This document shows, piece after piece, positions 793-47,995 of a stretch of 64,000 bases of DNA (its first letter is position 1; each line of letters begins with the position of its first letter). The stretch is from Alphaproteobacteria bacterium (GTDB lineage: Bacteria > Pseudomonadota > Alphaproteobacteria > Rs-D84). The DNA lies in assembly GCA_009784815.1 (NCBI GenBank), contig WQXN01000001.1, forward strand, positions 65,857 to 129,856. Direction: 5' to 3'. Both the position numbers and the translations under genes were made by a program. The notes under the pieces were generated by a model. It did not search any database and was not told the DNA's origin. It was given only the letters and a program-made list of their open reading frames with translations.

Positions 793-1059
793 ATGCGTCC
801 GGGAATTTGGGAAATTATATTAATCGTTGCGCTTGTCGTCATTCTGTTCGGATCGGCTAAGATCCCGGGTATGATGAAAAATATCGCCAATGGAATAAAT
901 ATCTTCAAAAAAGAAGTTGGTGGAAAAGGAGAAAAGCCCGGCCCGGAATCGCGCCGTAGCGCAAGCGAAGGCGGAAAAAAGGCCAATCCCATGAAGGCCG
1001 ACGGCAAGCCGACAAAGGCTAAGTCCGTTAAGGGAAAGAAGAAAAGAAAAAAGAAGTAA
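793..1059 (+). CDS. tatA: Twin-arginine translocase subunit TatA/E
   Basis: N-terminus MRPGIWEIILIVALVVILFGSAKIPGMMKNIANGI is the typical TatA TM helix plus FG hinge plus amphipathic helix. The tail is Lys-rich. Confidence 0.9.
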   Translation: MRPGIWEIILIVALVVILFGSAKIPGMMKNIANGINIFKKEVGGKGEKPGPESRRSASEGGKKANPMKADGKPTKAKSVKGKKKRKKK

Positions 1060-1065
1060 GGCTTG

Positions 1066-1106
1066 GCCGATTTGCGAAGCTAACCCAAAAAGCGAAGCAA
1101 ATCGGC
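1066..1106 (+). repeat. Hairpin element copy 1 (10-bp perfect stem, conserved 21-nt loop)
   Basis: GCCGATTTGC / GCAAATCGGC arms around loop GAAGCTAACCCAAAAAGCGAA. The loop is near-identical at 47996-48034 and related at 19388-19424. Confidence 0.65.
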
Positions 1107-1143: not shown

Positions 1144-1168
1144 ACTCCTCCGCAAGGGAGGAGTTTGT
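1144..1168 (+). terminator. Second hairpin between tatA and ftsK (possible terminator or attenuator)
   Basis: ACTCCTCC-GCAAG-GGAGGAGT stem-loop followed by TTTGT. Confidence 0.4.
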
Positions 1169-1185: not shown

Positions 1186-3342
1186 ATGAATTTTTTGCCA
1201 CAAGCTTTGAGTGATGTTTTGAAAAAGGCGGCGTCGGCTGCCCTGGGTTTCGCGCTTGTAGTTTTAGCATTTATAGTCGTGATAAGCCTGCTGGTTTACG
1301 ATATGGCCGACACAAGCCTTGTGGCAAGCATCGCCGAATTTTTTCAAAACTCGATCGGGATTTTGGCGTCCTTAATCCTTGCGGTCTATTCTGTTCGTGC
1401 CGGTTATTTCCTGCTTTTTGAAAACCGCCCGGTCGCGCATTATCAAGTGCCTCTGCTGCTTGGAGTCTTGTCCGTTCTGCTATTCGCGTTTGGTATGGGC
1501 TTGGCGTTTGGCGGCGCGGGCGGAGGAATTTTGGGTGTGGTGGCAAGCTATGACTTTGCCAAAATTATGCCTGGTTTAGGATTGTATTTAGGCTTGGTAT
1601 TTCTGGCCGCGGCCGCCGTTATATTCGTTAAGATCACGGGCCTGCGGTACGGGCATCTTAAGAGTGTGGCCGGGTGGTTTGCAAGTCGGAAAAATGATAA
1701 TGCTTTTTGCCCGGATGCTAGGACCCCGTCCGAGTATGACATTGAAAATATAAAGCCCAAGCGTCGTTTATTCTCATCGTCCAAGACTGCGCCGAAAAAA
1801 GTTGCGGTTAAAAAATTACCGGCTAAAACTGTTAAAAAGCCGGGTGGGCAGTATAAATTTCCTCCGCTGGATATACTTGAAAAAGGTATCGCGACCCGTC
1901 AGTCGATCGGCCCGGTTCAGCGTCAAAGCGCCGTGCACCTGCGCGATCACTTGGCCGAGTTCGGGGTCGAGGGAGACGTGGTCGGGATCAAGCCGGGTCC
2001 GGTCGTGACACTTTATGAATTCGAGCCCGGACGCGGAGTCAAAACTTCCAAAATCATCGAGACCGTGAAAGACATAACCCGCGTTATGGCGTCCGAAAAT
2101 ATCCGCATGGCCCATATCCCGGGAACCAATGTGATCGGGATCGAATTGCCGAACTTGTCCCGTCAGGACGTGCGTTTTCAGGGACTGATGGCGAACCCTG
2201 TGTTCCAAAATTCCGAGATGGGTATTCCGATCGCTTTGGGCGTTAATATCGGAGGCGAGGCGCGCTACGTCGATCTTGCCCGCATGCCTCACCTTATGAT
2301 CGCGGGACGCACCGGTACCGGAAAATCCGTCTTTATCCAGTCCATAATCCTATCCATTCTTTACAAGTTCCGGCCGGATGAATGCAAGTTGATATTGATC
2401 GATCCAAAGGGCGTGGATTTCACTCTGTGGGACGGCATACCGCATCTGCTTACTCCGGTCGTGACCGATCCCATGAAGTCGGTGAAAACCCTTAAATGGA
2501 CCGTGGCAGAAATGGAAAAACGCTATGCGCGCCTTAAAAAGCACGGTGTCCAAAACCTTGAAGGTTATAACGAAAAAATGTCCGAATTGCGGGATTCCAA
2601 CGCTGTGCTGACCGAGGCTGTCGCGACCGGCACGGACCCTGAAACCGGAAGCATTATATACGAAACCCGGCCGATGGATCTGACCGATATGCCGTACCTT
2701 GTCCTGATCATAGACGAAATGGCCGACCTTATGATGACGGGCGGTAAAGAGGTCGAAGCCTGCCTGCAGCGTCTTGCCCAAAAGGCCCGCGCCGCCGGTA
2801 TTCACGTCGTTATTGCTACGCAGCGACCATCGGTCGAGACTATCACCGGAGTTATCAAGGCCAACTTCCCGACCCGTATTTCATTTCAGACTTTGTCCGC
2901 CGTCGACAGTATAACGATACTTGCCGCCAAGGGAGCCGAGCAGCTGCTGCCCCGCGGAGACATGCTTTACCTTGAGGGAGGTCGCGCGCCCGTCCGTATT
3001 CACGCCGCCTATATCAGCGGGCCCGAGGCCCATGCGGTAGCCAAACACTTGCGAGCAGAGGCCGAGCCGGACTATATAGAAGGCGTCGGCGAGGACGAGG
3101 ATGGAGGCGCGCAGAATCTGTCCGCGCTTATTCCGGGATTAAAACCGTCCAAGGACGACAAGGACGACGAACTTTATAGGCAGGCGGTCGAGGTGGTTAT
3201 TCGCGACAAAAAACCGACCGTCAGTTATGTCCAGCGGGCTTTGAGGGTGGGCTATAACAAAGCCGCCATATTTATCGAGCGCATGGAGAAGGACGGCATC
3301 ATAACTCCGCCCGACGCGAACAACAAGCGCCGCATAAGATAG
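1186..3342 (+). CDS. ftsK: DNA translocase FtsK
   Basis: N-terminal TM segments and a linker. Motor domain has Walker A GRTGTGKS and Walker B LVLIIDEMADL. C-terminal gamma winged helix ...SYVQRALRVGYNKAAIFIERME. Confidence 0.95.
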   Translation: MNFLPQALSDVLKKAASAALGFALVVLAFIVVISLLVYDMADTSLVASIAEFFQNSIGILASLILAVYSVRAGYFLLFENRPVAHYQVPLLLGVLSVLLFAFGMGLAFGGAGGGILGVVASYDFAKIMPGLGLYLGLVFLAAAAVIFVKITGLRYGHLKSVAGWFASRKNDNAFCPDARTPSEYDIENIKPKRRLFSSSKTAPKKVAVKKLPAKTVKKPGGQYKFPPLDILEKGIATRQSIGPVQRQSAVHLRDHLAEFGVEGDVVGIKPGPVVTLYEFEPGRGVKTSKIIETVKDITRVMASENIRMAHIPGTNVIGIELPNLSRQDVRFQGLMANPVFQNSEMGIPIALGVNIGGEARYVDLARMPHLMIAGRTGTGKSVFIQSIILSILYKFRPDECKLILIDPKGVDFTLWDGIPHLLTPVVTDPMKSVKTLKWTVAEMEKRYARLKKHGVQNLEGYNEKMSELRDSNAVLTEAVATGTDPETGSIIYETRPMDLTDMPYLVLIIDEMADLMMTGGKEVEACLQRLAQKARAAGIHVVIATQRPSVETITGVIKANFPTRISFQTLSAVDSITILAAKGAEQLLPRGDMLYLEGGRAPVRIHAAYISGPEAHAVAKHLRAEAEPDYIEGVGEDEDGGAQNLSALIPGLKPSKDDKDDELYRQAVEVVIRDKKPTVSYVQRALRVGYNKAAIFIERMEKDGIITPPDANNKRRIR

Positions 3343-12284: not shown

Positions 12285-13292
12285 TTATATATCTATCCGA
12301 TCCAATATACGGTTCATTTGGCCGCGGATATTGCCGTCTTGTCTTTTTAACTGGCTGCGGAGAGTTTTATGTATATCGGTGATTTTTAAGTCGTTTATCC
12401 CGGCGCGATCCAATACCCTTTGCCAGGCGCGCTTGGGGTCCACAAGATGCCCCGCTCCCGCTCCTGTGCTTGGAAATACGAATTTAGATTTCTGCGGGAG
12501 GGATTCAAGCAGCACTACCGCTTGGTCCGCAAGGGGTTTTCCGTTCCAAGTGTTAAGATTCAGGTCCAAATCGTCCCAGCGCATTGCTAAAACTTTGCTT
12601 TTGTTCGCAAAGCCGTAGGCCAGCATTTTAAGGGCCGCCCTCATGTTAGGGTTTTTTTCCATATCTATCGCGCGGCCGATCAGCGAAAATTCCCCCGCGC
12701 TGATATGGCGCGATCCTTTTCGTTCGAAAAATTTTTCAAGATCTTTTGTAGGATTGTCCGATGCGTATCCTTCTTCAATCGCGGCGTTGAATATAGCCGA
12801 CATGGTTTCCCGCATACGGTTAGCGGTGGACTGGCCGTTTTCCTGGGCGATTTTTGAATGCAGTAGCGACAACTGCGCCGGCGTTATGTCGGAAAGCTTC
12901 AGGGGCAGGACTTCGGTCCAAAGACGCCCTATGTTGCGTTCCAGTTTTTTCTTGGATGCCGCTTCACGCCGGACTCTGTGTTTCAAAAACAATTCCGTCA
13001 TTTTGCCCAAAGTCATTTTGCCGGTCCTGATCGGCAGCGGAGTTTTCATTTTAATTATCGCTGTACCGGCCAGCTCGCGCGCGTCGTCTATGTCTATGTC
13101 GGGATAGTTGCCCAGTATCTTGCGGGTGTCTTTTCCGCGAGCTCGTTTTCTGACGAAAAATGTTTTCGCTCCGTTTGCCGTAATATAAAGCTGAAGGTCG
13201 GGATGATACGAATCACGCACCACTTCAAAGCCGGTTTTCGGCGGTATCAGGCTGTCCAGGACGGCGGAAGTGAAGGGAAAGCGAAGCGACAT
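12285..13292 (-). CDS. Degenerate P4-type (Arm/DUF4102 N-terminus) phage integrase, probably catalytically dead
   Basis: The N-terminus ...FEVVRDSYHPDLQLYITANGAKTFFVRKR... is the typical integrase arm-binding domain. The ORF is only 335 aa. The LAMRWDDLDL and IHKTLR relics are present. I cannot find the C-terminal His/Trp...Tyr segment, and the first catalytic Arg position reads N/K. Confidence 0.6.
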   Translation of the reverse strand: MSLRFPFTSAVLDSLIPPKTGFEVVRDSYHPDLQLYITANGAKTFFVRKRARGKDTRKILGNYPDIDIDDARELAGTAIIKMKTPLPIRTGKMTLGKMTELFLKHRVRREAASKKKLERNIGRLWTEVLPLKLSDITPAQLSLLHSKIAQENGQSTANRMRETMSAIFNAAIEEGYASDNPTKDLEKFFERKGSRHISAGEFSLIGRAIDMEKNPNMRAALKMLAYGFANKSKVLAMRWDDLDLNLNTWNGKPLADQAVVLLESLPQKSKFVFPSTGAGAGHLVDPKRAWQRVLDRAGINDLKITDIHKTLRSQLKRQDGNIRGQMNRILDRIDI

Positions 13293-16182: not shown

Positions 16183-18162
16183 CTATACGAATAGGTCTTT
16201 CACAAATTTGGCGTTTTCAGTGATGAACTTAAACCGGAACTCGGGCTTTTTGCCCATAAGATTGGCGACCAAGACTTTTGTTTTTTCCGCGTCTTCGTGG
16301 CCCTCCTCGGTTTTCGGGGGAAGTTCGACCCGTATAAGTCTGCGCGTTTTCGGATTCATTGTGGTGTCTTTCAGCTGGTGCGCCATCATTTCTCCAAGAC
16401 CCTTAAAACGCGAAATTTCGATCTTTTTGCCTTTGAATTTTCCGTTCTTCAGCTCGTCCAGTTCGTCATCGTTGGCCACATAGATCGTGTCTACTCCGAC
16501 CGACAGCTTGTAAAGCGGGGGGCATGAAAGATAAAGATGTCCGCCTTCAATCATTTGAGGCATGAACTGGTAAAAAAACGTCATCAGCAGGCTTGCTATG
16601 TGCGATCCGTCAACGTCTGCGTCCGTCATGATTATTATCTTTTCATAACGCAGTTTTTCTTCGTCATAATTGCCTCGGGTTCCGCAGCCCAAAGTTTCTA
16701 TCAGGTCGTTCAGTTCCTTATTGCCTTCGAACTTTTCGTCCGATCCGGCGACCACGTTCAATATCTTTCCTTTTAGCGGAAGTATCGCCTGGGTCTCGCG
16801 CGATCTGGCCTGTTTCGCCGTGCCGCCGGCGGATTCGCCTTCGACTATGAACAGCTCGGTCCCTTTGATGTGATGCTTGGAGCAGTCCGCAAGTTTCGAT
16901 GGCAGGCGTAGTTTTCTGGACGGGGTTTTGCGCGCTATGTCCTTCGCCTTCTTCACTTTTATCCGCGCTTCGGCCAAAGTTTTGGCGAATTCCAATAATG
17001 CGTTCGCAGTCTTTGGGTCCGATCCAAGGAACAGGTCGAACGGGTCGCGCGCCGCGTTTTCTATATATTTTACTATTTCCGGATTCGATAGCCTTTCTTT
17101 GGTCTGGCCTAAAAACTGCGGCGCTTTATAGAATAGCGACACTATGCCGCAGGCGCTGTCGAACACGTCTTCGGCGGTTATGTTTGCGGCCGATTTGTCG
17201 CCGATCCGTTCCGCGTAATTTTTAAGCCCCTTGGTGATCGCCGACTTGAAGCCGCTTTCGTGGGTGCCTCCGTCCGTCGTGGCGATGGTGTTGCAGTATG
17301 AATTCAAAAATCCGTCGTCGCTTGCCGCCCCGTTTTCATCCGTAAGCCATGTGATGGCGAATTCGACTTTGCCAGTTTCGTCCGGAAACGGCACCGATCC
17401 CGAAAATATTTTCGGGGTTAGTTTAACTTTGTCTTTTACGGTCTGTTCAAGAAAATCCGATATGCCGTTAGGAAAATAAAAATCCTCACTGGCCGGAATG
17501 CCCATGTCTTCGGTGATAAGTTCTGGATTGCATTTCCAGCTAAGACGCACGCCTTTCGACAGGAACGCCTTGGCGCGCGCGCGGCGGTACAGCCATACGG
17601 GTTTGAATGCCGCGGCGTCCCCAAATATCTGCGTGTCGATCGTGAATCTGACCGATGTGCCGTGCGCCGTCGTAGCCTCGCCTCTTTCAAGCGGCGCCGC
17701 CACTTTGCCGCGGGACAGTTTCAGTTTCCAGAAATAACCGTCGCGCGCGACTTGTATCACCGTTTCGGATGAAAGCGCGTTTACTATCGCGGCGCCGACT
17801 CCGTGCAGGCCGCCGGAAGTTTTATAGTTGCTGTTGTCGAACTTGCCGCCCGAGTGAAGGGTGGTGAATATGATTTCAAGCGCGGACTGGTCTGGGTATT
17901 TCGGGTGACGGTCGACCGGTATTCCTCGGCCGTTGTCCTTAATTTCTATAGTTTTGGAATCTATTAGGTTGAATTCTATCTTTGTGGCGAATCCGGCTAT
18001 TGCCTCGTCTATCGAATTGTCCAAAATTTCCGTCGGCAGGTGGTGCAGGGCCTTTTCGTCCTTGCCGCCTATATACATTCCCGGGCGCAGCCTGACCGGT
18101 TCAAGCCCTTCTAAGACCTGAATGTCGGCCGCATTGTAAGATTTGATTTTGTCGTTCGCCAT
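16183..18162 (-). CDS. parE: DNA topoisomerase IV subunit B (type IIA topoisomerase B subunit)
   Basis: GHKL ATPase (LEGLEPVRLRPGMYIGG, ILDNSIDEA, DNGRGIPV), TOPRIM ELFIVEGESAGG, and PLKGKILNV. A length near 659 aa without the long GyrB insertion favours ParE over GyrB. Start at the ATG at 18162 (MANDKIKSY). Confidence 0.8.
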   Translation of the reverse strand: MANDKIKSYNAADIQVLEGLEPVRLRPGMYIGGKDEKALHHLPTEILDNSIDEAIAGFATKIEFNLIDSKTIEIKDNGRGIPVDRHPKYPDQSALEIIFTTLHSGGKFDNSNYKTSGGLHGVGAAIVNALSSETVIQVARDGYFWKLKLSRGKVAAPLERGEATTAHGTSVRFTIDTQIFGDAAAFKPVWLYRRARAKAFLSKGVRLSWKCNPELITEDMGIPASEDFYFPNGISDFLEQTVKDKVKLTPKIFSGSVPFPDETGKVEFAITWLTDENGAASDDGFLNSYCNTIATTDGGTHESGFKSAITKGLKNYAERIGDKSAANITAEDVFDSACGIVSLFYKAPQFLGQTKERLSNPEIVKYIENAARDPFDLFLGSDPKTANALLEFAKTLAEARIKVKKAKDIARKTPSRKLRLPSKLADCSKHHIKGTELFIVEGESAGGTAKQARSRETQAILPLKGKILNVVAGSDEKFEGNKELNDLIETLGCGTRGNYDEEKLRYEKIIIMTDADVDGSHIASLLMTFFYQFMPQMIEGGHLYLSCPPLYKLSVGVDTIYVANDDELDELKNGKFKGKKIEISRFKGLGEMMAHQLKDTTMNPKTRRLIRVELPPKTEEGHEDAEKTKVLVANLMGKKPEFRFKFITENAKFVKDLFV

Positions 18163-18251
18163 GTCCGGGATAATAATGTTTTTTCCTCTTGCGCGCAAGG
18201 GGTATTTTTTTGTAAAGTATAGGAAAACTTATATTAACGGAGCATATTATC

Positions 18252-19367
18252 ATGGAATTTTCAGTATTTCGCCAGGTTTTGGTAAAGTCTATCGCGCACA
18301 TGCAGTCGATCGTGGAGCGCCGCGCGCCCCTGCCTATCATGATGAACGTCAAAATCGAAGCCAAGGACGACTTGATTATAACCGCCGCGAACGTGGACCT
18401 TGAACTTGTCGAGCGCGTTAAGGCGGATATTACTTTGCCGGGCAAGATCACGGTGCCGGTGCATCTTCTTTACGATATCCTCCGCAAGCTTCCCGAAGAG
18501 GCAGAGATCAAGATAAGACAGGCCAACGAACAGCAGCTGATCGTATCTTCGGGCAAGGCCAAGTTTACCCTGCTTACCCTTTCCGCCGACAGTTTTCCGA
18601 CTATGTCCGCCGCCAATATGTCCGCCAAATTTTCTATGACCACCGGCGGTTTGGCGCACATGATCGACAAGACGAAATTCGCGATCCCGGGCGACGACAC
18701 GCGCTATAACCTGGCCGGAATTTATCTGCACCTTACGGCCGAGGGGAAAACCCTGACCGCTGTCGCGACCGATTCTTTGCGTATGGCCGTATGCTCGGCC
18801 CCGGCTCCTGCGGGCTCTTCTAATATGCCGTCGGTTATTCTTCCGCGCCGCAGCATCGGCGAATTGTCCAAGCTTTTGGCGGACGCTGATGTTGACGACG
18901 TCATGGTGGAATTGTCCGAAACTAAGGCGCGCTTTACGATAGGCGACGCGGTTTTGACTACCAAGCTTATCGACGCTCAGTTCCCGAACTATACTATTGC
19001 GATTCCGAAATCCAACGACAAGCTTGCGGTGTTTCCCAAGGCTCAGTTCGTCGAGATGATAGACCGCGTGTCCGTCGCTTCGACCGAACGCACGAAATCG
19101 GTTGTGCTTAATTTCTCGGCAGGCAAGCTGGTGGCCAACACTTCCACCCCCGAAGCCGGAGCCGCGGTCGAGGAAATGGATGTCGAATACAATAACGACG
19201 AGCAGTTCCAGATCGTGTTCAACGTGCGCTTCCTGCTTGATATAGCGACCCAGATAGATGCGGACAAAATGCAGATTTCCATGATGGATTCTCTTTCCCC
19301 GACCATATTGCAGGGCAAAGAGAAAGAAAACGACTGCTTCTTTATACTTATGCCGCAGAAGGTCTGA
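18252..19367 (+). CDS. dnaN: DNA polymerase III beta sliding clamp
   Basis: 371 aa, three-domain pattern: ...VERRAPLPIMMNVKIEA..., LIDAQFPNY, ...FILMPQKV C-terminus. Confidence 0.95.
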   Translation: MEFSVFRQVLVKSIAHMQSIVERRAPLPIMMNVKIEAKDDLIITAANVDLELVERVKADITLPGKITVPVHLLYDILRKLPEEAEIKIRQANEQQLIVSSGKAKFTLLTLSADSFPTMSAANMSAKFSMTTGGLAHMIDKTKFAIPGDDTRYNLAGIYLHLTAEGKTLTAVATDSLRMAVCSAPAPAGSSNMPSVILPRRSIGELSKLLADADVDDVMVELSETKARFTIGDAVLTTKLIDAQFPNYTIAIPKSNDKLAVFPKAQFVEMIDRVSVASTERTKSVVLNFSAGKLVANTSTPEAGAAVEEMDVEYNNDEQFQIVFNVRFLLDIATQIDADKMQISMMDSLSPTILQGKEKENDCFFILMPQKV

Positions 19368-19387
19368 GAAACCCTGTTATTTTAAAC

Positions 19388-19432
19388 CAACCCGCTAAGC
19401 TAAAATAAAAAGCGAGGCGGGTTGAATTTTTT
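19388..19432 (+). repeat. Hairpin element copy 3; also the dnaN intrinsic terminator
   Basis: CAACCCGC / GCGGGTTG 8-bp perfect stem around the 21-nt loop TAAGCTAAAATAAAAAGCGAG, followed by AATTTTTT. 16-17 of 21 loop positions match copies 1 and 2. Confidence 0.65.
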
Positions 19433-19469: not shown

Positions 19470-20606
19470 ATGGCGGATCGCGATCTGTATGAAATTTTAG
19501 GCGTGGCGAAAGGCGCAAGCGATGCGGACATAAAAAAGGCCTATCACAAGCTTGTCATGAAGCATCACCCGGATAAAAATCCCGGCGACAAAACTAGCGA
19601 AACAAAATTCAAGGAAATCAGCAACGCTTACGATATCCTTCGCGATAAGCAAAAGCGCGCGGCTTATGATCAGTTCGGCGATAAGGCTTTCAAGGCCGGC
19701 GGCGCGGGTGGCAATCCTTTCGGACAGGGATTCGGCGGCGGCGCCGGTTTCGAAGGTTTTGATTTCGGCGGCGCGGGCTTTGGAGATATGTTCGAGGATA
19801 TTATGGCGAACATGGGATTCGGAGGCCGAGGCGCGGGTCAGGGCGGCCGCCGCGCGCGTCAGGCCAACACAAGCGGCCGCGATCTTCTTCACGAAGTCCG
19901 CGTAAGCTTAAAGGATGCTTTTCGCGGCAAGACTGTCGAGGTTAAATTCAATACCAACGTAAAATGCGAAAAATGCGCCGGACACGGAACCGCGAATTCC
20001 AAGGCGGCGGACGAATGTCCTTCTTGCCATGGATCGGGGTCTGTGCGCAAGTCCAACGGGTTCTTCGCGTTCGAATCCGAATGTCCAGATTGCAGCGGCA
20101 TGGGCAAAAAGATTGATAAAAAATGTACCGATTGCCAGGGCGATGGCACCAAGCGCGGCAGCCGCACTATCCAAGTTAAAATTCCGGCCGGCGTTTCGAC
20201 CGGAGCGCGCCTGCGCGTCGCAGGCCAGGGCGAGGCCGGAAGCGTAGGCGGCGCTTCGGGCGATCTTTACGTCGACGTGATAGTCGACCGCGATCCGCAT
20301 TTCTCGCGCGATGGAAACGATTTGCTTGTAAATCTTTCCGTGTCTTTTGCGACTCTTGCTCTGGGCGGGTCCGTTTCGGTCAAAGGCATAGACGGGGAAG
20401 ATTTGGATGTCAAAATTCCAAGCGGTACACAGGTCGGCTCTAAGCTTCGCCTTAAGGGCAAGGGTATGCCCGAAATTGGGCGCGCCAATATTCGCGGTGA
20501 TCTATACCTTAATATAAAAACCGAAATTCCAACCAAATTGTCCGCCAAGCAGAAAGAGTTGCTGGAGAAGTTCGCTAAGGAAAAATCGGCCAAAGGATTC
20601 TTCTAA
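19470..20606 (+). CDS. dnaJ: Chaperone DnaJ
   Basis: J domain with HHPDKNP, a G/F-rich region, and four CxxCxGxG repeats ([32 protein letters not shown]). Confidence 0.95.
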
Positions 20607-22403: not shown

Positions 22404-23222
22404 ATGTTTCAAAGAATTATAGCGGGAATCTTCGCGTTATTGGCCTTCGCGCCTATGGCCGCGCATTCCTGGTCGGATCGAAGCCAACTGGTTTGGGAAG
22501 GTCCCGAAGATGTATCGCCCGAGAATACTGCGGCGTCTGCATCGTCGGCGCCGGCGGCGGCCGCTCGGCCGTCCAGGCAGGCAAGACCTTTTGCTCCGCA
22601 GGAATCGAATTTTCGGGCGTCTGGTCTTCGCGTCAGCAATCAGATTATAACCAATAATTTCGGCGATCAGTATTCTTTCTCGGGCGGGCCGGACCTTATG
22701 CACGGCAACAACGCTCCGGCTGGATTCAACGATAATTCGCAGGCCGCTATGCCGCTTTTGACTCAAGGCATGGTCGAGGATGACGGCGGAGCGGCGCTTG
22801 CCGTGACCCAGAGCGACCGCCGCGCGCCGGCCGCAAACCGCGATGTTATGGTGTCTGACGCCGTCGTTGACGGCGGAACCCGCGTTATGAGCGCCGACGA
22901 TATGGCCGAGGATTTTGACGCTGCGGCCGACGCCGGTTCCGGCGCGGACGTTGTTAAAAGCTGGGTAGTGATGTCGGGCAAAACCCTGCGCGAAGTTTTG
23001 GGCGAATGGGCCGAGAACGCCGGTTGGGATCTTGTATGGAATACGTCCCGCGAATATCCGATTTCCGCAAGCGCCGTTTTCGAAGGTCGGTTCATGGACG
23101 TGTCGTCGGCTTTGGTGCGTAACTTTGCGCGCGCGACGCCGGTTCCGCACGCAAGATTTTATAAGGGGAACAAAGTGCTTGTCATAAGCACTTTGGAAGA
23201 TGGAGACAGCAATGCTTATTAA
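22404..23222 (+). CDS. Periplasmic protein with a C-terminal TcpQ/PilL-like domain (type IVb pilus accessory)
   Basis: Signal peptide MFQRIIAGIFALLAFAPMAAHS and an Ala/Pro/Asp-rich linker. The C-terminus SWVVMSGKTLREVLGEWAENAGWDLVWNTSREYPISASAVFEGRFMDVSSALVRNF...FYKGNKVLVI matches the TcpQ/PilL signature as I remember it. Confidence 0.65.
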   Translation: MFQRIIAGIFALLAFAPMAAHSWSDRSQLVWEGPEDVSPENTAASASSAPAAAARPSRQARPFAPQESNFRASGLRVSNQIITNNFGDQYSFSGGPDLMHGNNAPAGFNDNSQAAMPLLTQGMVEDDGGAALAVTQSDRRAPAANRDVMVSDAVVDGGTRVMSADDMAEDFDAAADAGSGADVVKSWVVMSGKTLREVLGEWAENAGWDLVWNTSREYPISASAVFEGRFMDVSSALVRNFARATPVPHARFYKGNKVLVISTLEDGDSNAY

Positions 23223-24777
23223 AAAATATTTTGTCATAGCTTTGGCGGCGGTCGCTTTGGCGGCTTGCAACAAAAAGCATTCGACGCAGGTGGCAGGCGA
23301 AGTCGACGACGGCTTCATAAACGCGTTCCGCGCTATGGAGCAGTCCCGTATGCCGCAAAACCGCATGACGGTCGACAGCGTGTCCGCAAGCGAGGGCGTA
23401 TGGCTTGGGGCGCGTTCCACCACCATCCGGCACAGGAACGATCTGCCGCGCAGATTCGAGGGAGAAAACGGAGTGACCATAGTTCTGGACGAGCCTGCGA
23501 CGCTTAACAGTTTGGCCGGTACCATTCACGAAGTAACCGGAATTCACGTAACGATCGACGGGCAGATTTCATCCGAAAAACTGGCCCGGACTTTTCAAAT
23601 TTCGCACAGCGGAAAGCTGTCCGATCTTTTGACCCGCGTCGCAAACGAGGCGGATGTCATGTGGTATTACGACAAGGAGAGCATAGTCTTCTTCGAGACC
23701 GAGACCAGAACCTTTAACCTATTCGCGCTTGGCACCGACATAAGCTTTTCGTCCCGCATTCAGACCGACGATTCAAATCAGGTGTCCTTGGAGTCCAACC
23801 TGCGCGAGTGGGATGAGATCGAGCGTTCGATCACAGGAATCTTGGACGGCGCGTCAAGCGCGCGCTTTACCGTGTCAAGGTCGCTTGGTACTATAACCGT
23901 CACCGCTTCCCCGTCCGCAATGAAGCGCGTCGGAGATTATATCGCGCGTCAAAACCGCCGTTTGTCCCAGCAGATTTCAATCGATGTCAAAGTCTTGCAG
24001 GTGTCCATTCAGAATGCGAACGCCGTGGGCCTGAACCTTACCGCCGCCATTCAGTCGGTGGGCGGTTTGCGTCTTGCCTCGAACCCGTCCAACAATCTTT
24101 CGGCCGACACTATAGGCGCTATATCGGGCTTGTCGGTCGCCGTGCTGGACAACGCCACGACTTTGGGCTCGGCGGCGGGCACTACCGCTTTGGTTCAGGC
24201 TTTGGCCAGCCAGGGCAAGGTATCCTTAATGACCAACGCTTCGGTCACGACGCGCAACAACCGCGTGGCCCCGGTCAGCAACGTTCGTAACACCGGATAT
24301 ATCCGCCGCATAGAATCCCGAACTTTCACGACCGTCGAATCCTCGAGCGTCGAGCAGGACACGGTCGAAACCGGATTTTCGATGCAGTTGCTGCCGAACA
24401 TTATCGAGAACGGCCGCGTATTGTTGCTGTTCAAGATGTCATTGCGCGAATTGATCCGCATGAATACCGCTCAAATTGGCGGAGGTGGCGGAAGTCCGGG
24501 CATCACAATACAGATGCCTGACGTCGAAGAGCGCGCGTTTATGCAAGAGGTAATTTTGGAATCGGGGCAGACTTTGGTCATATCGGGATTCGAGAGGCAG
24601 ACGAACGACGATTCAAGATTCGGTATCGGAGAGGCGGACTTTATGGCGCTGGGCGGATCGCGCGAGACTTCAAGCGCGCGCGACGTTCTGGTCGTAATCT
24701 TGACGCCGCAGGTTCACATATCCCCCATGGATAGCGAACGCGCCGCTATGCGTGAATTCGGTGCGCCGCTTAATTAA
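23212..24777 (+). CDS. Lipoprotein secretin (R64 PilN / BfpB / TcpC type)
   Basis: Lipobox LAAC after MLIKKYFVIALAAVA. Secretin C-domain: ISIDVKVLQVS..., GKVSLMTNASVTTRNNRVAP, GFSMQLLPNIIENGRVLL, QTLVISGFERQ. GGAGA RBS before the ATG at 23212. Confidence 0.85.
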   Translation: MLIKKYFVIALAAVALAACNKKHSTQVAGEVDDGFINAFRAMEQSRMPQNRMTVDSVSASEGVWLGARSTTIRHRNDLPRRFEGENGVTIVLDEPATLNSLAGTIHEVTGIHVTIDGQISSEKLARTFQISHSGKLSDLLTRVANEADVMWYYDKESIVFFETETRTFNLFALGTDISFSSRIQTDDSNQVSLESNLREWDEIERSITGILDGASSARFTVSRSLGTITVTASPSAMKRVGDYIARQNRRLSQQISIDVKVLQVSIQNANAVGLNLTAAIQSVGGLRLASNPSNNLSADTIGAISGLSVAVLDNATTLGSAAGTTALVQALASQGKVSLMTNASVTTRNNRVAPVSNVRNTGYIRRIESRTFTTVESSSVEQDTVETGFSMQLLPNIIENGRVLLLFKMSLRELIRMNTAQIGGGGGSPGITIQMPDVEERAFMQEVILESGQTLVISGFERQTNDDSRFGIGEADFMALGGSRETSSARDVLVVILTPQVHISPMDSERAAMREFGAPLN

Positions 24778-24807
24778 GAATTGTCGCGGGGAAAATTTTG
24801 GAGAGAG

Positions 24808-26076
24808 ATGGCAGGGCAGGTAATATCTATTGGTCGGAAAAAATACGCGACCGGGCTTTTTTGGCAGCCGGTCGGATCCGCTCGCTCGGCCAAGGATGTC
24901 GCCGTTAAAATATCAGAATCTAGTCCCAAGGCGAAATTCAGATATTACGCGGAATATCGCAATCAGGTTGGGCTTGGATCCTTCGCGCTGAAGCATGCCG
25001 CCGGAATGACTCCTTTGGCTGCCGAAGTCGCCGAGAGTTTCGGAGATTCTACGTCGTTCGCCGCCGCCTTCAAAGTGGGGTCGGGCTATTATACTTTGGC
25101 CGTAAGGAACGGCGTTATACTATCTGATTCGGACCGCCTTTTTAATGATGAGAATGCTGCGCGCGCCGCTTATGCTTCGTTGCTGGAACTGCCGGATTGG
25201 TCTCTTCGCGTCGCTCCGGAATCATGGGGAATCCAAGGCGCCGAGGCGCGAACTTTGGAAGACTTGGTGACCGGCCGTGTCAAAAGCGCGCTGCGTCCGA
25301 TACATACTACATTCGGTTCGGTATTCAATATCGCGCTTGTTCTTGCCGCGATATTGGGAGTTCTGTATTTCTTTAGTGCCGACATAAATCACATGATTGC
25401 GCGCCGCCCAGCCGCGTCGGCCATGACCGAAGAATCGGCCCGCCGCTTCCACGAGGAAATGGCCGCGCGGAATATTCGGCCCGAGGCGCCAGCGCCAAAG
25501 CCCGAAGCGTTAGTTATGCCTTGGGATGACATCCCGGACCATTCGGAAGTGTCCGCCCGATGCGTGCGCGCGATAGCCTTCGTCATGCAGCCCGTGTACG
25601 GCTGGAACGTCGTGTCCGCCGAATGCCAGAACGGATCAATCCGCGCGCTTATGCGCCGCGACTACGGCACGGTCGAAGACCTTTATGCCGTGGTCAACAC
25701 CATTATGCCGGGAATCGGTATACGCATAACCGGAACCGCCGGGTCCGACGCCGAACTTACCGGAGTTTTCGCAAAAACGCCGGGAGAATCCGCCGCGCCG
25801 GAATGGTCCCTGTCCGAGATCGAGCGGCGCGTCCGATCGGTCTTCCAGCAGGTCAATATGCAGGTCGATATTTCCCGCGGCCGCGAGATAGTTTCAAGCG
25901 AAGACGGGTCGGTGCGGAAAACCGCCGAGTTCGTGCGCCTTCGCGCGGATTCAAAAATCATGCCGGTAGAATTCGCTAAATTCTTGGAAGGAATTCCGTC
26001 CGTCGAGCTTGTGTCGATAAGATGGGACAATGTCCGAAACATTTGGAGTTACGAGGAGAAGATATATGCAAAATAA
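24808..26076 (+). CDS. Bitopic membrane protein in the PilO position of R64-type clusters
   Basis: One TM segment (VFNIALVLAAILGVLYFF). The assignment rests on gene order between the secretin and the PilP-like gene. GGAGAGAG RBS before the ATG at 24808. Confidence 0.5.
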   Translation: MAGQVISIGRKKYATGLFWQPVGSARSAKDVAVKISESSPKAKFRYYAEYRNQVGLGSFALKHAAGMTPLAAEVAESFGDSTSFAAAFKVGSGYYTLAVRNGVILSDSDRLFNDENAARAAYASLLELPDWSLRVAPESWGIQGAEARTLEDLVTGRVKSALRPIHTTFGSVFNIALVLAAILGVLYFFSADINHMIARRPAASAMTEESARRFHEEMAARNIRPEAPAPKPEALVMPWDDIPDHSEVSARCVRAIAFVMQPVYGWNVVSAECQNGSIRALMRRDYGTVEDLYAVVNTIMPGIGIRITGTAGSDAELTGVFAKTPGESAAPEWSLSEIERRVRSVFQQVNMQVDISRGREIVSSEDGSVRKTAEFVRLRADSKIMPVEFAKFLEGIPSVELVSIRWDNVRNIWSYEEKIYAK

Positions 26077-26788
26077 AAAACTTATTATATTCGCCGCATT
26101 GCTGGGCTTTGCCACGCCCGCTTACCCGACCGAAATAGATCTGGACGCGTTCGATACCGATGGGTCTGTGTTCCTTCGCATAACCGAGCTTGAACAGGAA
26201 AAAGTCCTGATGAGGCTTGAAAAAGAGCGCGCCCAGCTTGAACTGGACCTTAAGCGAATCGAGGTGGAAAGGCAACGCATCGCGGGCACCGTCCAAACCG
26301 CCTCGGCCGGTTCTGTCGCAGAACAGGTCGCGGCCGGAATCGAAGCCGAGCGTAAAAAGCTTGCGGCCGAGATGGACAAGATCAGAAAGCAGATGGAGGA
26401 TATGAGAAAAGCCGAAGCCGCGCCCGAGCGCGTTCAGGCTAGAACTGCCGCCCAGCCCGCGCCCGTCGAAGAAGACGAGCTGGATATATCTGATCTGTTT
26501 CGCATAATAAGCATTACCGGCAGCGATGGAAACCTTACCGCAAATATTGAAAACATTACCACCGGACAGCGCCGCAGATTGGGCGCCGGACGGTCGATAG
26601 ATGGGTTTAAAATAGTTTCCGTATCGGCCGACGACGGGGTGGTGTTCGAACTGGACGGCGAGCAGTTTCCTCTTGGGCTGATACAAAACGCTAGGCCCGT
26701 TTTGGCTGCCCCCGCCGTGTCAAGGCCCGCGCCAACTGCCGCCGCGGCGCCCGCCGCAACCGGACCTGCCGCCAGACAGGAAAGATAA
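26066..26788 (+). CDS. PilP-like periplasmic protein (signal peptide, coiled coil, C-terminal beta domain)
   Basis: MQNKKLIIFAALLGFATPAYP, then a charged coiled coil, then ITGSDGNLTANIENITTGQRRRLGAGRSIDGFKIVSVSADDGVVFE, which resembles the PilP/GspC HR-type domain. Confidence 0.55.
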   Translation: MQNKKLIIFAALLGFATPAYPTEIDLDAFDTDGSVFLRITELEQEKVLMRLEKERAQLELDLKRIEVERQRIAGTVQTASAGSVAEQVAAGIEAERKKLAAEMDKIRKQMEDMRKAEAAPERVQARTAAQPAPVEEDELDISDLFRIISITGSDGNLTANIENITTGQRRRLGAGRSIDGFKIVSVSADDGVVFELDGEQFPLGLIQNARPVLAAPAVSRPAPTAAAAPAATGPAARQER

Positions 26789-28417
26789 ATGGCGCAGAAC
26801 ATCGGAAATTTTTCAAAAGATTCGCAAAATTCCGTTCCGGGTAACGTTGGAAACATGGATTCCAAAAAAATAGTGGATTTCCTGTTCGCAGAAAACAACC
26901 AGCTTTTGACCGGATTCAAAGGACGGCTGGAACTTCCCAAAGACACTCAGAATCTGGTCGCGTATTTCCTGGGCGGAGAATTGGTTATATCCCGCACCCA
27001 CAAGTTCGACGGCCGGGTGCTGGCTTTCGTTTCCCTTATTCAGCGCGAAAATCTTCCGCTTAAAGAGCCTTTCTACAGCGATCTTGGATTGTTGTCTGCG
27101 ATTTACAAGTATGGCGATGAAAAACTTGGCACAGAGGTGGCGAAATCCCGCCTTGATTACGACAACCAGATGCAGAAGGATTTCGTCGACATAGTCGCGC
27201 GTGCGTCTGCCATTAAAGTTTCTGACATACATATCGAAGTTGCGAACCACACCACGATTTATTTCCGCCGTGACGGAGGAATGCAAACCGTCCTTGAATA
27301 CAGCGCCGCATGGGGAGAGAGTTTTATCCGTGCCGCCTTCGCTTCCGCCGATATTTCAAGCAGCAACTACGCCAAAAACGAATATCAGTCCGCGCAGAAG
27401 GACGGCCGCACTCCGCTTCGCGGCACGAAAGACCTTTACCTTCCCGCGGGCGTTCTTGGTATCCGTATGCAGTTCAGTCCGATCGCCTTCGGATCGCGCT
27501 ATGTCGTCATGCGCCTGTTGTACGAAAACCCTACCGATGGAATCAGAATCGAACAGGAGTTCACAGAATACGAACAAAGAATCCTGGCGCGCCTAAGGTC
27601 TTTCCCGACGGGCCTTGTGGTTGTGGCGGGACCTACCAGCAGCGGAAAATCCACCACGCTTTTTCAGAACATGACATTGATGCTACGCGAGCGGGATTAC
27701 GAAATAAACCTGATAACCGTCGAAGATCCGGCCGAACGCAAAATCTTCGGCGCCCGCCAGATGCCGGTTGTGAACGCCGGTACCGAAGAGGCGCGCGACG
27801 AAAAATTTACCGAAGCTTTGGCTTCGGCCCTTCGTTCCGATCCGGACGTTCTTATGGTCGGAGAAATCAGGACCCTGTCGGTCGCGGCTCTGACGCTTAA
27901 GGGCGCGCTGTCCGGTCATTTGGTTTGGACTACATTGCACGCCAATTCCGCGCTTGGTTCGCTGACCCGTCTTATCGATATGGGCATCGAGGCCTTTAAA
28001 TTGAAAGACGAAACTATGATGAGGGGGCTGATGTCCATGAGGCTTTTCAAGACGCTTTGCCCCCACTGTCGCGAGCCGATTGCGCGCCATCCGGACACAA
28101 AGATCTATTCGCGCGTTTTGGACTATTTCGGCGAGATCGGCTTGGCGCAGATCTTTATCAAAGGCCGGGGCTGCGAGCAGTGCGGCGGAAAAGGCACCGT
28201 AGGCCGGGTCAAAGCCGGCGAGATAGTGCTGACCGACGCCAAACTTCTTGAGATGATGACGAATGGCGACAAGGCGGCCGCGTTCGCGTATTGGCTTGAA
28301 AAGCAGGGCGGGCGCACTTTGAAGGAAGCCGCGTCCGAATTGATGTTAAGGGGGCGCGTCGGGGCCGACGAACTGGAACGATGGGTCGGCCTGATCGACC
28401 AGCCGACCGTTTATTAG
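26789..28417 (+). CDS. GspE/PilB-family assembly ATPase (R64 PilQ type)
   Basis: Walker A GPTSSGKST, Asp box ITVEDPAE, Walker B DPDVLMVGEIR, His box GHLVWTTLHAN, tetracysteine CPHC...CEQCGGKG. Confidence 0.9.
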   Translation: MAQNIGNFSKDSQNSVPGNVGNMDSKKIVDFLFAENNQLLTGFKGRLELPKDTQNLVAYFLGGELVISRTHKFDGRVLAFVSLIQRENLPLKEPFYSDLGLLSAIYKYGDEKLGTEVAKSRLDYDNQMQKDFVDIVARASAIKVSDIHIEVANHTTIYFRRDGGMQTVLEYSAAWGESFIRAAFASADISSSNYAKNEYQSAQKDGRTPLRGTKDLYLPAGVLGIRMQFSPIAFGSRYVVMRLLYENPTDGIRIEQEFTEYEQRILARLRSFPTGLVVVAGPTSSGKSTTLFQNMTLMLRERDYEINLITVEDPAERKIFGARQMPVVNAGTEEARDEKFTEALASALRSDPDVLMVGEIRTLSVAALTLKGALSGHLVWTTLHANSALGSLTRLIDMGIEAFKLKDETMMRGLMSMRLFKTLCPHCREPIARHPDTKIYSRVLDYFGEIGLAQIFIKGRGCEQCGGKGTVGRVKAGEIVLTDAKLLEMMTNGDKAAAFAYWLEKQGGRTLKEAASELMLRGRVGADELERWVGLIDQPTVY

Positions 28418-28426
28418 AGGTGAATT

Positions 28427-29500
28427 GTGGCGACTAAACTGGATATTATTTATTCAAAATTCATGTTCAAGCTGGACACCGACAAAAGGCTTGGGTCCTA
28501 TAGAAAATTATCCAGCCTGCTGCGGAACGACTTCACTTTGACCGAAGCTTTGATCCGGCTGGAAGCTATAGAAAGCCGGGACGGAAAAAAACCGAACGAG
28601 CCTTTTGCTATAGCGTTCCGCGAATGGCAGGCCAAACTTGAGCGAGGATATACTTTTTCCGAAGCCATATCCGGCTGGGCAAGCGAGGTGGAAATTTTAA
28701 TGCTTTCGTCTTCCGATATATCCAAGCTTTGGATCGCTCTGGACAACACCGTCCGCATAGTGGAGGGAAGCAGAAAAATCCGAAACGCTTTGGTGTCCGC
28801 TATTACTTATCCCATGTTCCTGCTTGCCGCTACTTTCGCGATCATAATAATGGTCGGAGTCTATTTGCTTCCGCCTATGCTCGAGGCCGCGGGTCGCGAC
28901 GTCGTATGGCGCGGCACCGCGCGAAGCTTGGTGGCAACATCGCGGTTCTTTGGTGATAATTGGATCATAATGCTTGCGGCATTCGTTTTTGCTTCGGTTA
29001 TTATCGGTTATTCCATGCCTTTGTTCCGCGGGCGGATTCGCGCTTTGTTCGACAATGTTCCGCCTTGGTCGCTTTACAAAGTGTCCGCAAGCGCCGGATG
29101 GTTGGTAAGTCTTGCGTCCCTGATCAAGGCGGGCGCAAGTTTGCCCGAAGCGCTTAAAATGATGTCTGGAAATTCCAACAAATACTTGGCTGACGTGTCG
29201 GACCGCGCGCTTGAAGGCGTGATAGCGGGGCAAAATCTGGGCGATGCGCTGGACGTGGCGGGCCTGCATTTCCCGAACGACGAGATTATCGGAGATCTTA
29301 AAATCTATGCCGAAATGGACGAGTTCGACAAAAACCTTATGAATGTCGCGACCGAATATATGGACGGATCGGTAACGCGGATCGAGTCGGCCGCAAGCGT
29401 TCTAAACTCGGTCGGCATACTGCTGATCTCGGTCGTGATAGCCTGGGTCGTATTCGGAACTTTCGAAATGCAGGACCAGGTGGCCGCCGCTATTTCCTGA
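28427..29500 (+). CDS. GspF/PilC-family inner-membrane platform protein (R64 PilR type)
   Basis: 357 aa, GTG start, three TM segments and two cytoplasmic helical repeats (...EALIRLEA..., ...LPEALKMMSG...). Confidence 0.8.
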   Translation: MATKLDIIYSKFMFKLDTDKRLGSYRKLSSLLRNDFTLTEALIRLEAIESRDGKKPNEPFAIAFREWQAKLERGYTFSEAISGWASEVEILMLSSSDISKLWIALDNTVRIVEGSRKIRNALVSAITYPMFLLAATFAIIIMVGVYLLPPMLEAAGRDVVWRGTARSLVATSRFFGDNWIIMLAAFVFASVIIGYSMPLFRGRIRALFDNVPPWSLYKVSASAGWLVSLASLIKAGASLPEALKMMSGNSNKYLADVSDRALEGVIAGQNLGDALDVAGLHFPNDEIIGDLKIYAEMDEFDKNLMNVATEYMDGSVTRIESAASVLNSVGILLISVVIAWVVFGTFEMQDQVAAAIS

Positions 29501-32431: not shown

Positions 32432-34405
32432 ATGTTTAAACTGGAATCTAATTTCAAGCCCATGGGGGATCAGCCCGCTGCTATCAGGGAACTTAACGAA
32501 GGCCTTGCGCGCGGCAGGCGCGACCAGACCCTTCTTGGAGTCACGGGATCGGGCAAAACCTTCACTATGGCGAATGTGATCGCTAACACGGGCAGGCCGA
32601 CCCTTATCATGGCTCCGAACAAGATTTTGGCCGCCCAGCTTTTTACCGAGATGAAGTCGTTCTTCCCAAAAAACCACGTCGAGTATTTTGTGTCCTATTA
32701 CGACTATTACCAGCCCGAGGCTTATGTGCCGACAACCGACACTTACATAGACAAGGACGCCGCCATAAACGACCAGCTGGAGCGTATGCGCCATTCGGCC
32801 ACCAGGTCCCTTCTTGAATACCGGGATACGATAGTCGTGTCTTCGGTGTCTTCTATTTACGGCCTTGGGGACCCGGCTGAATATAAGGCCATGTGCCGCA
32901 CGTTCAGGGTGGGTCAAAATATCCCCATGATGACCATGCTGCTGGAACTTGTGGCTCTGCATTACAAGCGCAACGATATAGGATTTTCGCGCGGGGACTT
33001 TCAAGTTTCGGGCGACAGTATACAAATTTTCCCGCCCCATTCCGAGGATAGGGTAATCAGGCTATCCTTCTTCGGGGATGAGATAGAATCAATATCCGAG
33101 ATCGACAGTTTAACCGGCAAAATAATTCAAAAAGCCGGACACATATCCCTTTATCCCAACAGCCATTACGCGACTGAAACTTCGATCATTACCAACGCCA
33201 TAAAAGGCATAAGGCTGGAACTGGCCGACCGCCTGGCTTGGTTTGCGGATAATAAAAAACTGCTGGAAGAGCAGAGATTGAGAGAGCGCACCACCTTCGA
33301 TCTTGAGATGATGTCGGCGACCGGAACCTGCAAGGGGATCGAAAACTATTCGCGGTATCTGTCCGGCCGCGCTCCGGGGGAACCGCCTCCGACCCTGTTC
33401 GAATATCTGCCGAAAGACGCCCTGTTGTTTATAGACGAATCCCACGTGACCGTCCCTCAGATCGGAGCGATGTACAAGGGTGACAGGTCCCGTAAACAGA
33501 CCCTGGTCGATTACGGATTCCGCCTGCCAAGCGCGATGGATAACCGTCCGCTTAAATTCGAAGAATGGGACGTCATCCGGCCCGATACTATTTACGTGTC
33601 CGCGACCCCGAACGACTATGAGATAGGCCTGTCGAACGGAGTCGTGGCCGAGCAGGTGATCCGTCCTACCGGGCTTCTTGATCCCGAATGCGAAGTTCGT
33701 CCGACCGCTTCCCAGGTGGACGATCTTTTGGGCGAGATCAAAAAAATCAAGGGCAGGGTGCTGGTCACGACCCTTACCAAAAAAATGGCCGAACAGCTTA
33801 CCGAATATCTTTCCGAAAATGGCATCCGCGCGCGCTACCTTCATTCGGACGTCGAAACTTTAGAGCGTATCGAATTGATCAGGCAGCTTCGCGCCGGAGA
33901 GTATGATGTGCTGGTCGGAATCAACTTGCTTCGCGAGGGATTGGATATTCCCGAATGCGAACTGGTCGCGATAATGGACGCCGACAAGGAAGGATTTTTA
34001 AGATCGGCCAGATCTCTTATACAGACCATAGGACGCGCCGCGCGAAACGCCAAGGGCCGGGTGATACTTTATGCCGACAAGGTGACGAAAAGCATGGACG
34101 AGGCGTTAAGCGAAACCTCGCGTCGCCGCGCAAAGCAGGAGGCTTATAATAAAGAGCATAACATCAAACCGAAAACCATATCGAAAAACATCTTCGACAA
34201 GATCGGCGATGATATTAAGGACAAGAAGAAGACTGCGTACATCTATACTAAGAAGGGCGCGCTTAGCTCGGCCGACATAAGGAAAGAGATTGCCGCGCTT
34301 AATAAGCAGATGAAAAAACTGGCCGAGGATTTGGAGTTCGAGCGCGCCGGGGAAATACGCGACAGAATAAAATCTTTACAAGAAGATCTGTTGTATTTAG
34401 AATAG
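32432..34405 (+). CDS. uvrB: Excinuclease ABC subunit B
   Basis: [18 protein letters not shown], beta-hairpin [11 protein letters not shown]-terminal UVR motif [11 protein letters not shown]. Confidence 0.97.
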
Positions 34406-38141: not shown

Positions 38142-38341
38142 TCAAGCGTTCCGTTTCCATAAAAGGACATCCTACTTCCCTGGCCTTGGAGCCCGAATTT
38201 TGGGAAGCCTTGAAGGTCGCCGCGTCGCGACGTAAAATTTCCGTCCCGGCCTTGATCGGGCGAATAGACGAGGCGAGGGGGGCTTCTAATCTTTCTTCGG
38301 CCTTGCGCGTATTCTTATTAAACGAAGCGCAAGCGCAATAA
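38138..38341 (+). CDS. Ribbon-helix-helix protein (RHH_4-like)
   Basis: MIKRSVSIKGHPTSLALEPEFWEALKVAASRRKISVPALIGRIDEARGASNLSSALRVFLL matches the alphaproteobacterial RHH_4 pattern. ATGA overlap with the upstream gene. Confidence 0.75.
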   Translation: MIKRSVSIKGHPTSLALEPEFWEALKVAASRRKISVPALIGRIDEARGASNLSSALRVFLLNEAQAQ

Positions 38342-47982: not shown

Positions 47983-47991
47983 ATTATATCA
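47983..47991 (-). promoter_or_regulatory. Extended -10 element (TGaTATAAT) for the porin-like gene
   Basis: Minus strand reads TTTGTGATATAAT, immediately after hairpin copy 2. Confidence 0.4.
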
Positions 47992-47995
47992 CAAA

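Follow-up and report, generated by a model that had tools for sequence, protein, structure and literature searches.

Intrinsic terminators have loops of about 3–8 nt and a U-tract directly after the stem. REPs number in the hundreds; their stem is conserved and has a 5' GTAG, and a RAYT (Y1 transposase) gene accompanies them. The attC sites of integrons contain R''/L'' and L'/R' boxes and extrahelical bases, the base of the stem being conserved and the centre variable. Kink-turns are formed by an asymmetric 3-nt bulge followed by tandem G.A/A.G pairs. Iron-responsive elements and phage boxB sites, which are conserved between species, are recognised at the RNA level and always in the same orientation.

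The sequences GCGNAGC and GCGNNAGC form an extraordinarily stable mini-hairpin in single-stranded DNA (Hirao and colleagues; reviewed in PMC13037366). GCGNAGC mini-hairpins have been found at primase and single-stranded DNA initiation sites of phages and plasmids, the natural settings reported to date, and standard nearest-neighbour parameters miss their stability (PMC13037366). A further report (PMC8794818) describes template switching as a process that creates and maintains perfect hairpin stems.

The hairpins presented here are located in a window of 64,000 nt, by which we mean the whole stretch of DNA analysed, from an uncultured alphaproteobacterial MAG. The window belongs to a 238-kb contig (ENA ERZ27264051, k141_6361525), of which an extra 20 kb was also scanned. 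The original prediction had described three intergenic hairpins, situated past the stop codons of tatA, dnaN and ruvA, and all three were recovered with the same positions, stems and loops (Table 1). The Pfam assignments confirmed the three upstream genes, with the correction that ruvA lies on the minus strand, and its downstream neighbour matched no Pfam family. The stems are perfect over 8–10 bp, all window copies begin 3–21 nt past a stop codon, and the 21-nt loops agree to the predicted extent, with 20/21 identical positions between copies 1 and 2, 16/21 between copies 1 and 3, and 17/21 between copies 2 and 3.

Table 1. Positions of the hairpins, of their tip cassettes (heptamer, spacer, heptamer) and of surrounding features. 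Positions are those of the window unless a relative is named.
Feature	Position	Strand	Sequence or parts	Remarks
TatA-family gene	793–1059	+		Pfam
Copy 1 hairpin	1066–1106	+	GCCGATTTGC / GAAGCTAACCCAAAAAGCGAA / GCAAATCGGC, 21-nt loop	58.2 bits; TatA-family stop 7 nt before, ftsK downstream; U-tract on neither strand
Copy 1 cassette	1074–1098	+	GCGAAGC (1074–1080), TAACCCAAAAA (1081–1091), GCGAAGC (1092–1098)	
Second hairpin after tatA	1144–1164		ACTCCTCC-GCAAG-GGAGGAGT, then TTTGTCAT	between copy 1 and ftsK, 38 nt past copy 1
ftsK	1186–3342	+		Pfam
Tyrosine integrase gene	12285–13292			about 5 kb upstream of dnaN
dnaN	18252–19367	+		Pfam
Copy 3 hairpin	19388–19424	+	CAACCCGC / TAAGCTAAAATAAAAAGCGAG / GCGGGTTG, 21-nt loop	52.4 bits; dnaN stop 21 nt before, dnaJ downstream
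Copy 3 cassette	19394–19418	+	GCTAAGC, TAAAATAAAAA, GCGAGGC	
T6 tract	19427–19432	+		2 nt past copy 3 stem
dnaJ	19470–20606	+		Pfam
Type IVb pilus-like cluster	22404–29500			downstream of dnaJ
YbeY–acyltransferase fusion ORF	38286–40079	-		597 aa
gatA (amidase) ORF	42753–43691	-		312 aa, between gatC and gatB
Gene downstream of ruvA	46987–47955	-		
U-rich tail	47988–47995	-	TTTGTGAT	directly after copy 2 in ruvA transcription direction
Copy 2 hairpin	47996–48034	+	ATGCGCCGC / GAAGCTAACCTAAAAAGCGAA / GCGGCGCAT, 21-nt loop	56.9 bits; 3 nt past ruvA stop, upstream of the minus-strand gene 46987–47955
Copy 2 cassette	48003–48027	+	GCGAAGC, TAACCTAAAAA, GCGAAGC	
ruvA	48038–48601	-		Pfam
Family copy in relative L135	1406–1446		TTCGTCCGGC / GCAGCAAATTAAAACAGCGGA / GCCGGACGGA	34 bits; heptamers GCGCAGC and GCGGAGC
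Other hairpin repeats in relatives	L124 6084–6132, 8750–8800, 12713–12764, 15429–15479; L124 8594–8633, 20437–20478; L135 13782–13823			

An inverted-repeat scan of the window found 51 hairpins with perfect stems of at least 8 bp, and the loop was common to these three only; an unbiased repeat finder independently returned the family as a 25-mer (D5). The core AAGCTAANNNAAAAAGCGA had three exact matches in the window, all on the plus strand, and none in 100 dinucleotide-preserving shuffles. A covariance model of the copies, searched against the window without filters, gave them 52–58 bits, and the next best score in the window, 16.6 bits, came from the reverse strand of copy 1. A scan of the 16-base core covered 185,579 genomes, and among the at least 120 matches listed none was stemmed, the flanking complementarity being at most 5 bases as against 8–10 in the window. 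The hairpin family is thus real and far beyond chance, on account of the shuffles, the gap of about 35 bits in the model scores and the absence of stems from the chance matches. It is also tiny and restricted to one lineage: no additional copy was present in the further 20 kb of the same contig, which gives three in about 84 kb, and altogether five copies were found, in three related uncultured genomes.

The apparent 21-nt loop, taken together with the last two stem pairs, was found to consist of two heptamers of the GCGNAGC type separated by an A-rich spacer of 10–11 nt, the outer GC of each heptamer forming the last two stem pairs. The GCGAAGC heptamers that had been noted at the loop edges of copies 1 and 2 are present, and the consensus fits 8 of the 10 heptamers in the five copies. 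The exceptions are both heptamers of copy 3, whose changes (G3 to T and A5' to G) oppose each other in the fold and produce a U.G pair. [quoted passage not shown] After removal of the spacer and one heptamer, an ordinary GAA-triloop hairpin would remain. Nearest-neighbour DNA folding favours the long stem, and the cassette alone gains no special stability in it. By eye, the loop had no CtrA box (TTAA-N7-TTAA), DnaA box, sigma-54 promoter, boxA or hammerhead core.

The 8 nt before copy 3 (TTATTTTA, 19377–19384) are exactly complementary to part of its loop spacer (TAAAATAA, 19401–19408), and the complementarity spans precisely the positions where copy 3 departs from copies 1 and 2. This match may reflect alternative pairing, may have been left behind by template switching, or may be due to chance in AT-rich sequence.

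Since ruvA and the gene after it are both on the minus strand, the loop motif of copy 2 runs antisense to the two genes that flank it. In copies 1 and 3 the motif has the sense orientation relative to the neighbouring genes, and in the whole family four of the five copies are sense to the upstream gene. The U-rich tails take their direction from the upstream gene, regardless of how the motif is oriented. Copy 3 is followed by T6, the copy in relative L122 by T8, and copy 2 by UUUGUGAU on the minus strand, a weaker tail than the other two. Copy 1 and the copy in L135 have no U-tract. The tail of copy 2 overlaps the extended -10 box TGATATAAT (47991–47983) of the next gene, a box conserved in the relatives L138 and L136, and a promoter-like site for the next gene follows each copy. 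The T6 tract would be the intrinsic-terminator tail of dnaN. A part in termination or in the formation of 3' ends, as originally proposed, is plausible for the three copies that have a tail, namely copy 3, copy 2 and the L122 copy.

The orientation of the cassette on the chromosome is constant, all five copies lying on the strand of positive GC skew. Since the skew is positive throughout the window (+0.04), the plus strand is the leading strand over its full length. The tails track the gene strand and the cassette does not, so that the terminator-like features belong with stem and tail and the orientation of the cassette appears to be uncoupled from transcription, although the strand rule itself is not significant (five copies, four of them independent, p about 0.1). 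The skew of the L124 and L135 loci is very strong, +0.21 to +0.25 over 21–22 kb.

Orthologous loci were retrieved via homologues of DnaN, FtsK and RuvA. In relative L122 (GCA_031256175.1, DnaN 86% identical), dnaN is followed by CCCGCCCGGC / GAAGCGAATAGAACAGCGAA / GCCGGGCGGG and then by T8, a copy with two GCGAAGC heptamers, a different 10-nt spacer, a 20-nt loop and a diverged stem. Between copy 3 and this orthologue, three of the eight stem pairs are altered on both sides with the pairing kept; the stem differs at 9/16 positions and the loop at 7/20, so the two have diverged in parallel. The paralogues behave otherwise: copies 1 and 2 differ at 1/21 loop positions and at 14/16 stem positions (Fisher p = 3e-7), and the stems of the window copies differ pairwise at 9–14/16 positions. 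The stems had been called fully covarying, which goes too far: real compensatory change is found between copy 3 and L122 only, and the paralogous stems are simply unrelated, as between copies 1 and 2. What did stand is that a conserved apical part is carried by non-homologous, perfectly paired stems, and that the hairpins form a genuine family. The paralogue and orthologue patterns together rule out simple duplication followed by divergence, and to go by these sequence comparisons the tip would be either copied between hairpins or kept by genome-specific selection. The heptamers are kept in all five copies from three genomes, and the spacer is not kept across genomes.

In the other relatives the same sites are occupied differently. 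After dnaN, ordinary short-loop terminators are present in L124 (DnaN 84%) and L126 (68%), that of L126 (AAAAACCCGCC-AATT-GGCGGGTTTTT) having ACCCGC/GCGGGT in common with the stem of copy 3, and in L140 (DnaN 85%) a 1-kb ORF is inserted instead. After tatA, L133, L134 and L135 have different plain hairpins with loops of 4 or 5 nt (CTTG, TTTAA, ATTG). After ruvA, only a gap of 18–40 nt separates the gene from the next one in L136 and L138, and no hairpin is present; in the window, CGT and the 39-nt hairpin lie cleanly between the stop codon and the extended -10 box, and no target-site duplication was found at this indel when the window was compared with the relatives. The window lineage appears, on the basis of the DnaN identities, to be the outgroup, so gain and loss at the ruvA site are indistinguishable.

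The additional family member in L135 was detected with the covariance model and is located between secD and secF, which overlap or abut in other genomes. Correlated changes are found across the internal loop, from G.A to U.G in copy 3 and from A.A to C-G in L135, an argument for the extended fold being of some importance. Single GCGNAGC tips also cap plain hairpins in the relatives, among them L135 5599, L133 17877 (minus strand) and L124 20166. The stems of L122 and L135 have five of eight independent positions in common, no more than chance would give in GC-rich stems, and their homology was rejected.

The second hairpin listed in Table 1, between copy 1 and ftsK, is kept in relatives with compensatory changes, as ACTCCCCC-GCAA-GGGGGGAGT in L133 and CCCCTCC-AATG-GAGGGG in L135, and probably serves as the actual terminator of tatA or as a leader element of ftsK. 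The dnaN–dnaJ spacer is a hot spot of change in the clade, occupied by the family hairpin in the window and L122, by other repeats in L124 and by the 1-kb ORF in L140.

The relatives also contain other small repeats. Two other intergenic hairpin families, neither of them matching Rfam, are carried by a relative from JGI 3300042617 (contig Ga0466718_089853). The first has variable outer stems (beginning GGAA.../...TTCC) and a loop containing an inner covarying mini-hairpin, TGGRC-TGGAT-GYCCA; the second is a stem-conserved repeat, GGATTTGCCCC-GGCAAATCAAAAGGCCAR-GGGGCAAATCC. A repeat of about 50 nt, ATTACCACTACCCCGTC...CACCCCTTCGCC-N-GCGAAGGGG, is found in L124 (11122–11170), L125 (from 2332) and L135 (1447–1497), directly after dnaN in L124 and directly after the diverged secD–secF family copy in L135, which suggests that the small elements are arranged as mosaics. 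Within the window, 25-mers composed of CCGGC, 15 A-rich nucleotides and GCCGG (family D2) were found at 30273–30297 and 33114–33138, identical at 22/25 positions, and also at 1819–1843 and 38882–38906. They lie inside four genes in different frames, including an AsmA-like gene (minus strand) and uvrB (plus strand), and are probably due to chance; their GC / A-rich / AAAAAGC layout echoes that of the cassette.

As regards the gene content, dnaA does not precede dnaN; in its place gyrB is found divergently upstream (region 16183–19367), and a tyrosine integrase gene is also located upstream of dnaN. The gatA ORF is short in comparison to the 483–492 aa of relatives, and may reflect a truncation, a frameshift or an assembly problem. 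One ORF fuses a YbeY endoribonuclease to an apolipoprotein N-acyltransferase (LNT_N and CN_hydrolase), a fusion present also in L136 and L138 (596–605 aa). The type IVb pilus-like cluster (TcpQ, secretin, PilO-like, T2SSE ATPase, T2SSF) is syntenic in all close relatives.

The searches for known families gave no match. Rfam had none at gathering thresholds in the window and seven related loci, and when the surroundings of copies 1 and 2 were searched with E values of up to 10 admitted, nothing of relevance appeared. A 20-base pattern fitting all three copies retrieved only three stem-less chance matches from the JGI metagenomes, IMG/VR gave six stem-less matches and no true one, and BLAST against plasmids and phages gave nothing beyond one 20-nt chance match. 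No further copies were found outside this lineage in the searches made, and neither the gene tables nor the Pfam scans revealed an HUH, RAYT or transposase gene in the window, its flanks or the retrieved loci. Derivation from a known mobile element, which the original prediction had allowed for, was thereby set aside.

The hairpins are most terminator-like in their GC-rich perfect stem a few nucleotides past the stop codon, in the plain terminators at the same sites in relatives, in the U-tract after copy 3, the L122 copy and, more weakly, copy 2, and in the compensatory change of the orthologous stem. They differ in having an internally structured loop of 21 nt (20 in L122) instead of 3–8 nt, so that, as originally pointed out, the loop is large for a plain terminator; because of its length a terminator consensus scan does not call these sites. 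Also the missing U-tract of copy 1 and a loop sequence common to unrelated hairpins set them apart. With REPs and BIMEs they share the form of short dispersed gene-end hairpins, the presence/absence variation between close relatives, and the company of other small hairpin repeats, some adjacent as a mosaic, but here the stems are unrelated, the tip is conserved and GTAG is absent; three copies were counted in about 84 kb. The heptamers of copies 1 and 2, L122 and L135 fit the GCGNAGC mini-hairpin consensus exactly; the two heptamers, however, jointly close a long stem and are placed at gene ends, not at priming sites, and those of copy 3 (GCTAAGC, GCGAGGC) depart from it in a way that retains the cross-strand pairing and not the mini-hairpins. 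A conserved apical sequence on an arbitrary stem is found also in iron-responsive elements and boxB, from which the family differs in that one of the three window copies is antisense and the spacer varies between close genomes.

Other classes were also tried and rejected. A MITE or IS fragment is not indicated, as inverted repeats of conserved sequence are lacking, the ruvA indel shows no target duplication, and plasmids, phages, IMG/VR and the JGI metagenomes gave no match. The spacer, at 11 nt, is too small for an element, which speaks against the footprint of a transposon with a 7-bp target duplication; neither such an element nor an outer duplication was observed. Integron attC sites have the reverse pattern to the variable stem and conserved centre seen here, where the stems are perfect without bulges. 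The internal loop, being symmetric 3x3 (GAA/GAA) and not asymmetric, does not form a kink-turn.

Of the explanations considered, a chance resemblance of three ordinary hairpins with similar A-rich loops is the least credible. A-rich, Lys/Glu-codon-like strings matching the core are indeed common in other genomes, but the shuffles contained no exact core match against the three observed, all three stems are perfect where the chance matches listed had little complementarity, about 35 bits separate the copies from the background, and relative L122 has an orthologous copy. The concern that the similarity is one of AT-rich sequence is therefore excluded by shuffles, stems and model scores, and chance is effectively refuted. 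The original prediction, that the conserved loop is a recognition site, corresponds to an RNA-level module in which a protein or RNA would bind the GNA/GNA internal loop and the A-rich loop, with the stem only as a scaffold, and would control 3'-end processing, stability or termination efficiency. Conservation of the apical part on unrelated stems speaks for such a module, as do the heptamers kept across the three genomes, the predominance of sense copies, the correlated internal-loop changes of copy 3 and L135, which are expected if the extended fold matters, and the UAA/GAG of copy 3, which we take to resemble the UAA/GAN internal-loop motif of structured RNAs. Nevertheless, copy 2 is antisense, with its U-rich tail on the gene strand, so its transcript would carry UUC/UUC and a U-rich loop; only the GCGNAGC heptamers and not the A-rich spacer are kept in the L122 orthologue (13/20 positions); the close relatives lack the element at the tatA and ruvA sites; and neither an Rfam family nor copies in the JGI metagenomes or elsewhere outside the lineage were found. 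The 21-nt loop as a sequence-specific RNA site is not upheld by these observations, and an RNA-level module in general we regard as unlikely.

Unlikely, too, is a REP-like DNA element, a site at the DNA level having also been allowed for in the original prediction. The hairpin would extrude on the lagging-strand template, and its paired GCGNAGC tips would be recognised by a replication or recombination enzyme, for instance a primase or an HUH/RAYT-type nuclease, that mobilises the element or uses it as a site. The placement of all copies on the leading (positive-skew) strand, including the antisense copy 2, would be explained by it, and so would their presence or absence between close relatives at secD–secF and after ruvA, where the gene pairs nearly abut elsewhere, and the richness of the relatives in other small hairpin repeats; GCGNAGC mini-hairpins at phage and plasmid priming sites (PMC13037366) offer a parallel. 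Against this stand the lack of HUH, RAYT and transposase genes in the window and retrieved loci, stems that are not conserved as in REPs, the ruvA indel free of target-site duplication, a strand rule that rests on four independent copies (p about 0.1), and the ordinary stability of the isolated cassette under standard DNA folding parameters, which according to the review miss this motif. We would likewise doubt that the paired-heptamer tip is a new cis-acting signal, read by a dedicated factor as folded single-stranded DNA (the lagging-strand template) or as RNA, with an orientation tied to the replication strand and with the capacity to seed gene-end hairpins or to convert them.

The best explanation, which we hold tentatively and at a little under even probability, is that terminator-type hairpins stand at these gene ends and that copying of DNA propagates or homogenises the cassette at their tips. 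The ancestral form in the clade would be a plain GC-rich hairpin whose GCGNAGC cap makes a GNA triloop on two closing G-C pairs, and its tip heptamer would have been doubled around a 10–11 nt A-rich spacer to give the apparent 21-nt loop. The stem, together with the U-tract where present, would terminate transcription or protect the 3' end of the upstream gene, and would also separate that gene from the promoter of the next one. The cassette would be conserved mainly through copying between hairpins, the likely route being template switching or gene conversion during replication with the heptamers as microhomology. Such copying is proposed to account for the nearly identical loops on unrelated perfect stems, for the direct repeat of the heptamer and the restriction to one lineage, and for a motif orientation that tracks the replication strand and not the gene strand. 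Template-switch mutagenesis resembles what is seen in that it accounts for perfect stems, for multi-base changes of compensatory appearance and for rapid hairpin turnover, and is tied to the replication strand; it differs in being a mutational process and not an element. We know of no described case of inter-locus copying of a tip cassette. The anatomy, the positions, the occurrence in some relatives and not in others, and the compensatory change of the stem between orthologues are directly established; we infer both the terminator activity and the copying mechanism.

Several observations weigh against terminator-type hairpins with a copied cassette. The family has only five copies, four of them independent, and about 84 kb of the genome was covered. 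Copy 1 is without a U-tract, and at that site the hairpin at 1144–1164 makes a better candidate for the terminator. A loop as long as 21 nt would be expected to weaken intrinsic termination, and no donor, intermediate or template-switch junction was observed. At ruvA both arms are absent in the relatives, so either a plain hairpin arose there first or the relatives lost the element; a fold-back model that derives the 5' arm from local sequence fails at this site, neither arm being present in the relatives. The correlated internal-loop changes, moreover, suggest selection on a folded apical module, which a pure passenger would not need.

The architecture is unusual but explicable, and the family adds a variant to the gene-end hairpin repeats, one so far of narrow scope, with five copies from three related uncultured genomes. 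If the copying of the cassette is true, the family would be a compact natural case of non-B DNA chemistry shaping gene ends, in which a very stable mini-hairpin motif drives template switching between loci and makes unrelated terminators resemble a family. The result would be repeats with a conserved loop and a free stem, which are easily mistaken for functional RNA motifs in covariation screens. If the tip is instead a recognition site, it would define a small, new cis-element in uncultured alphaproteobacteria whose lineage is little known.
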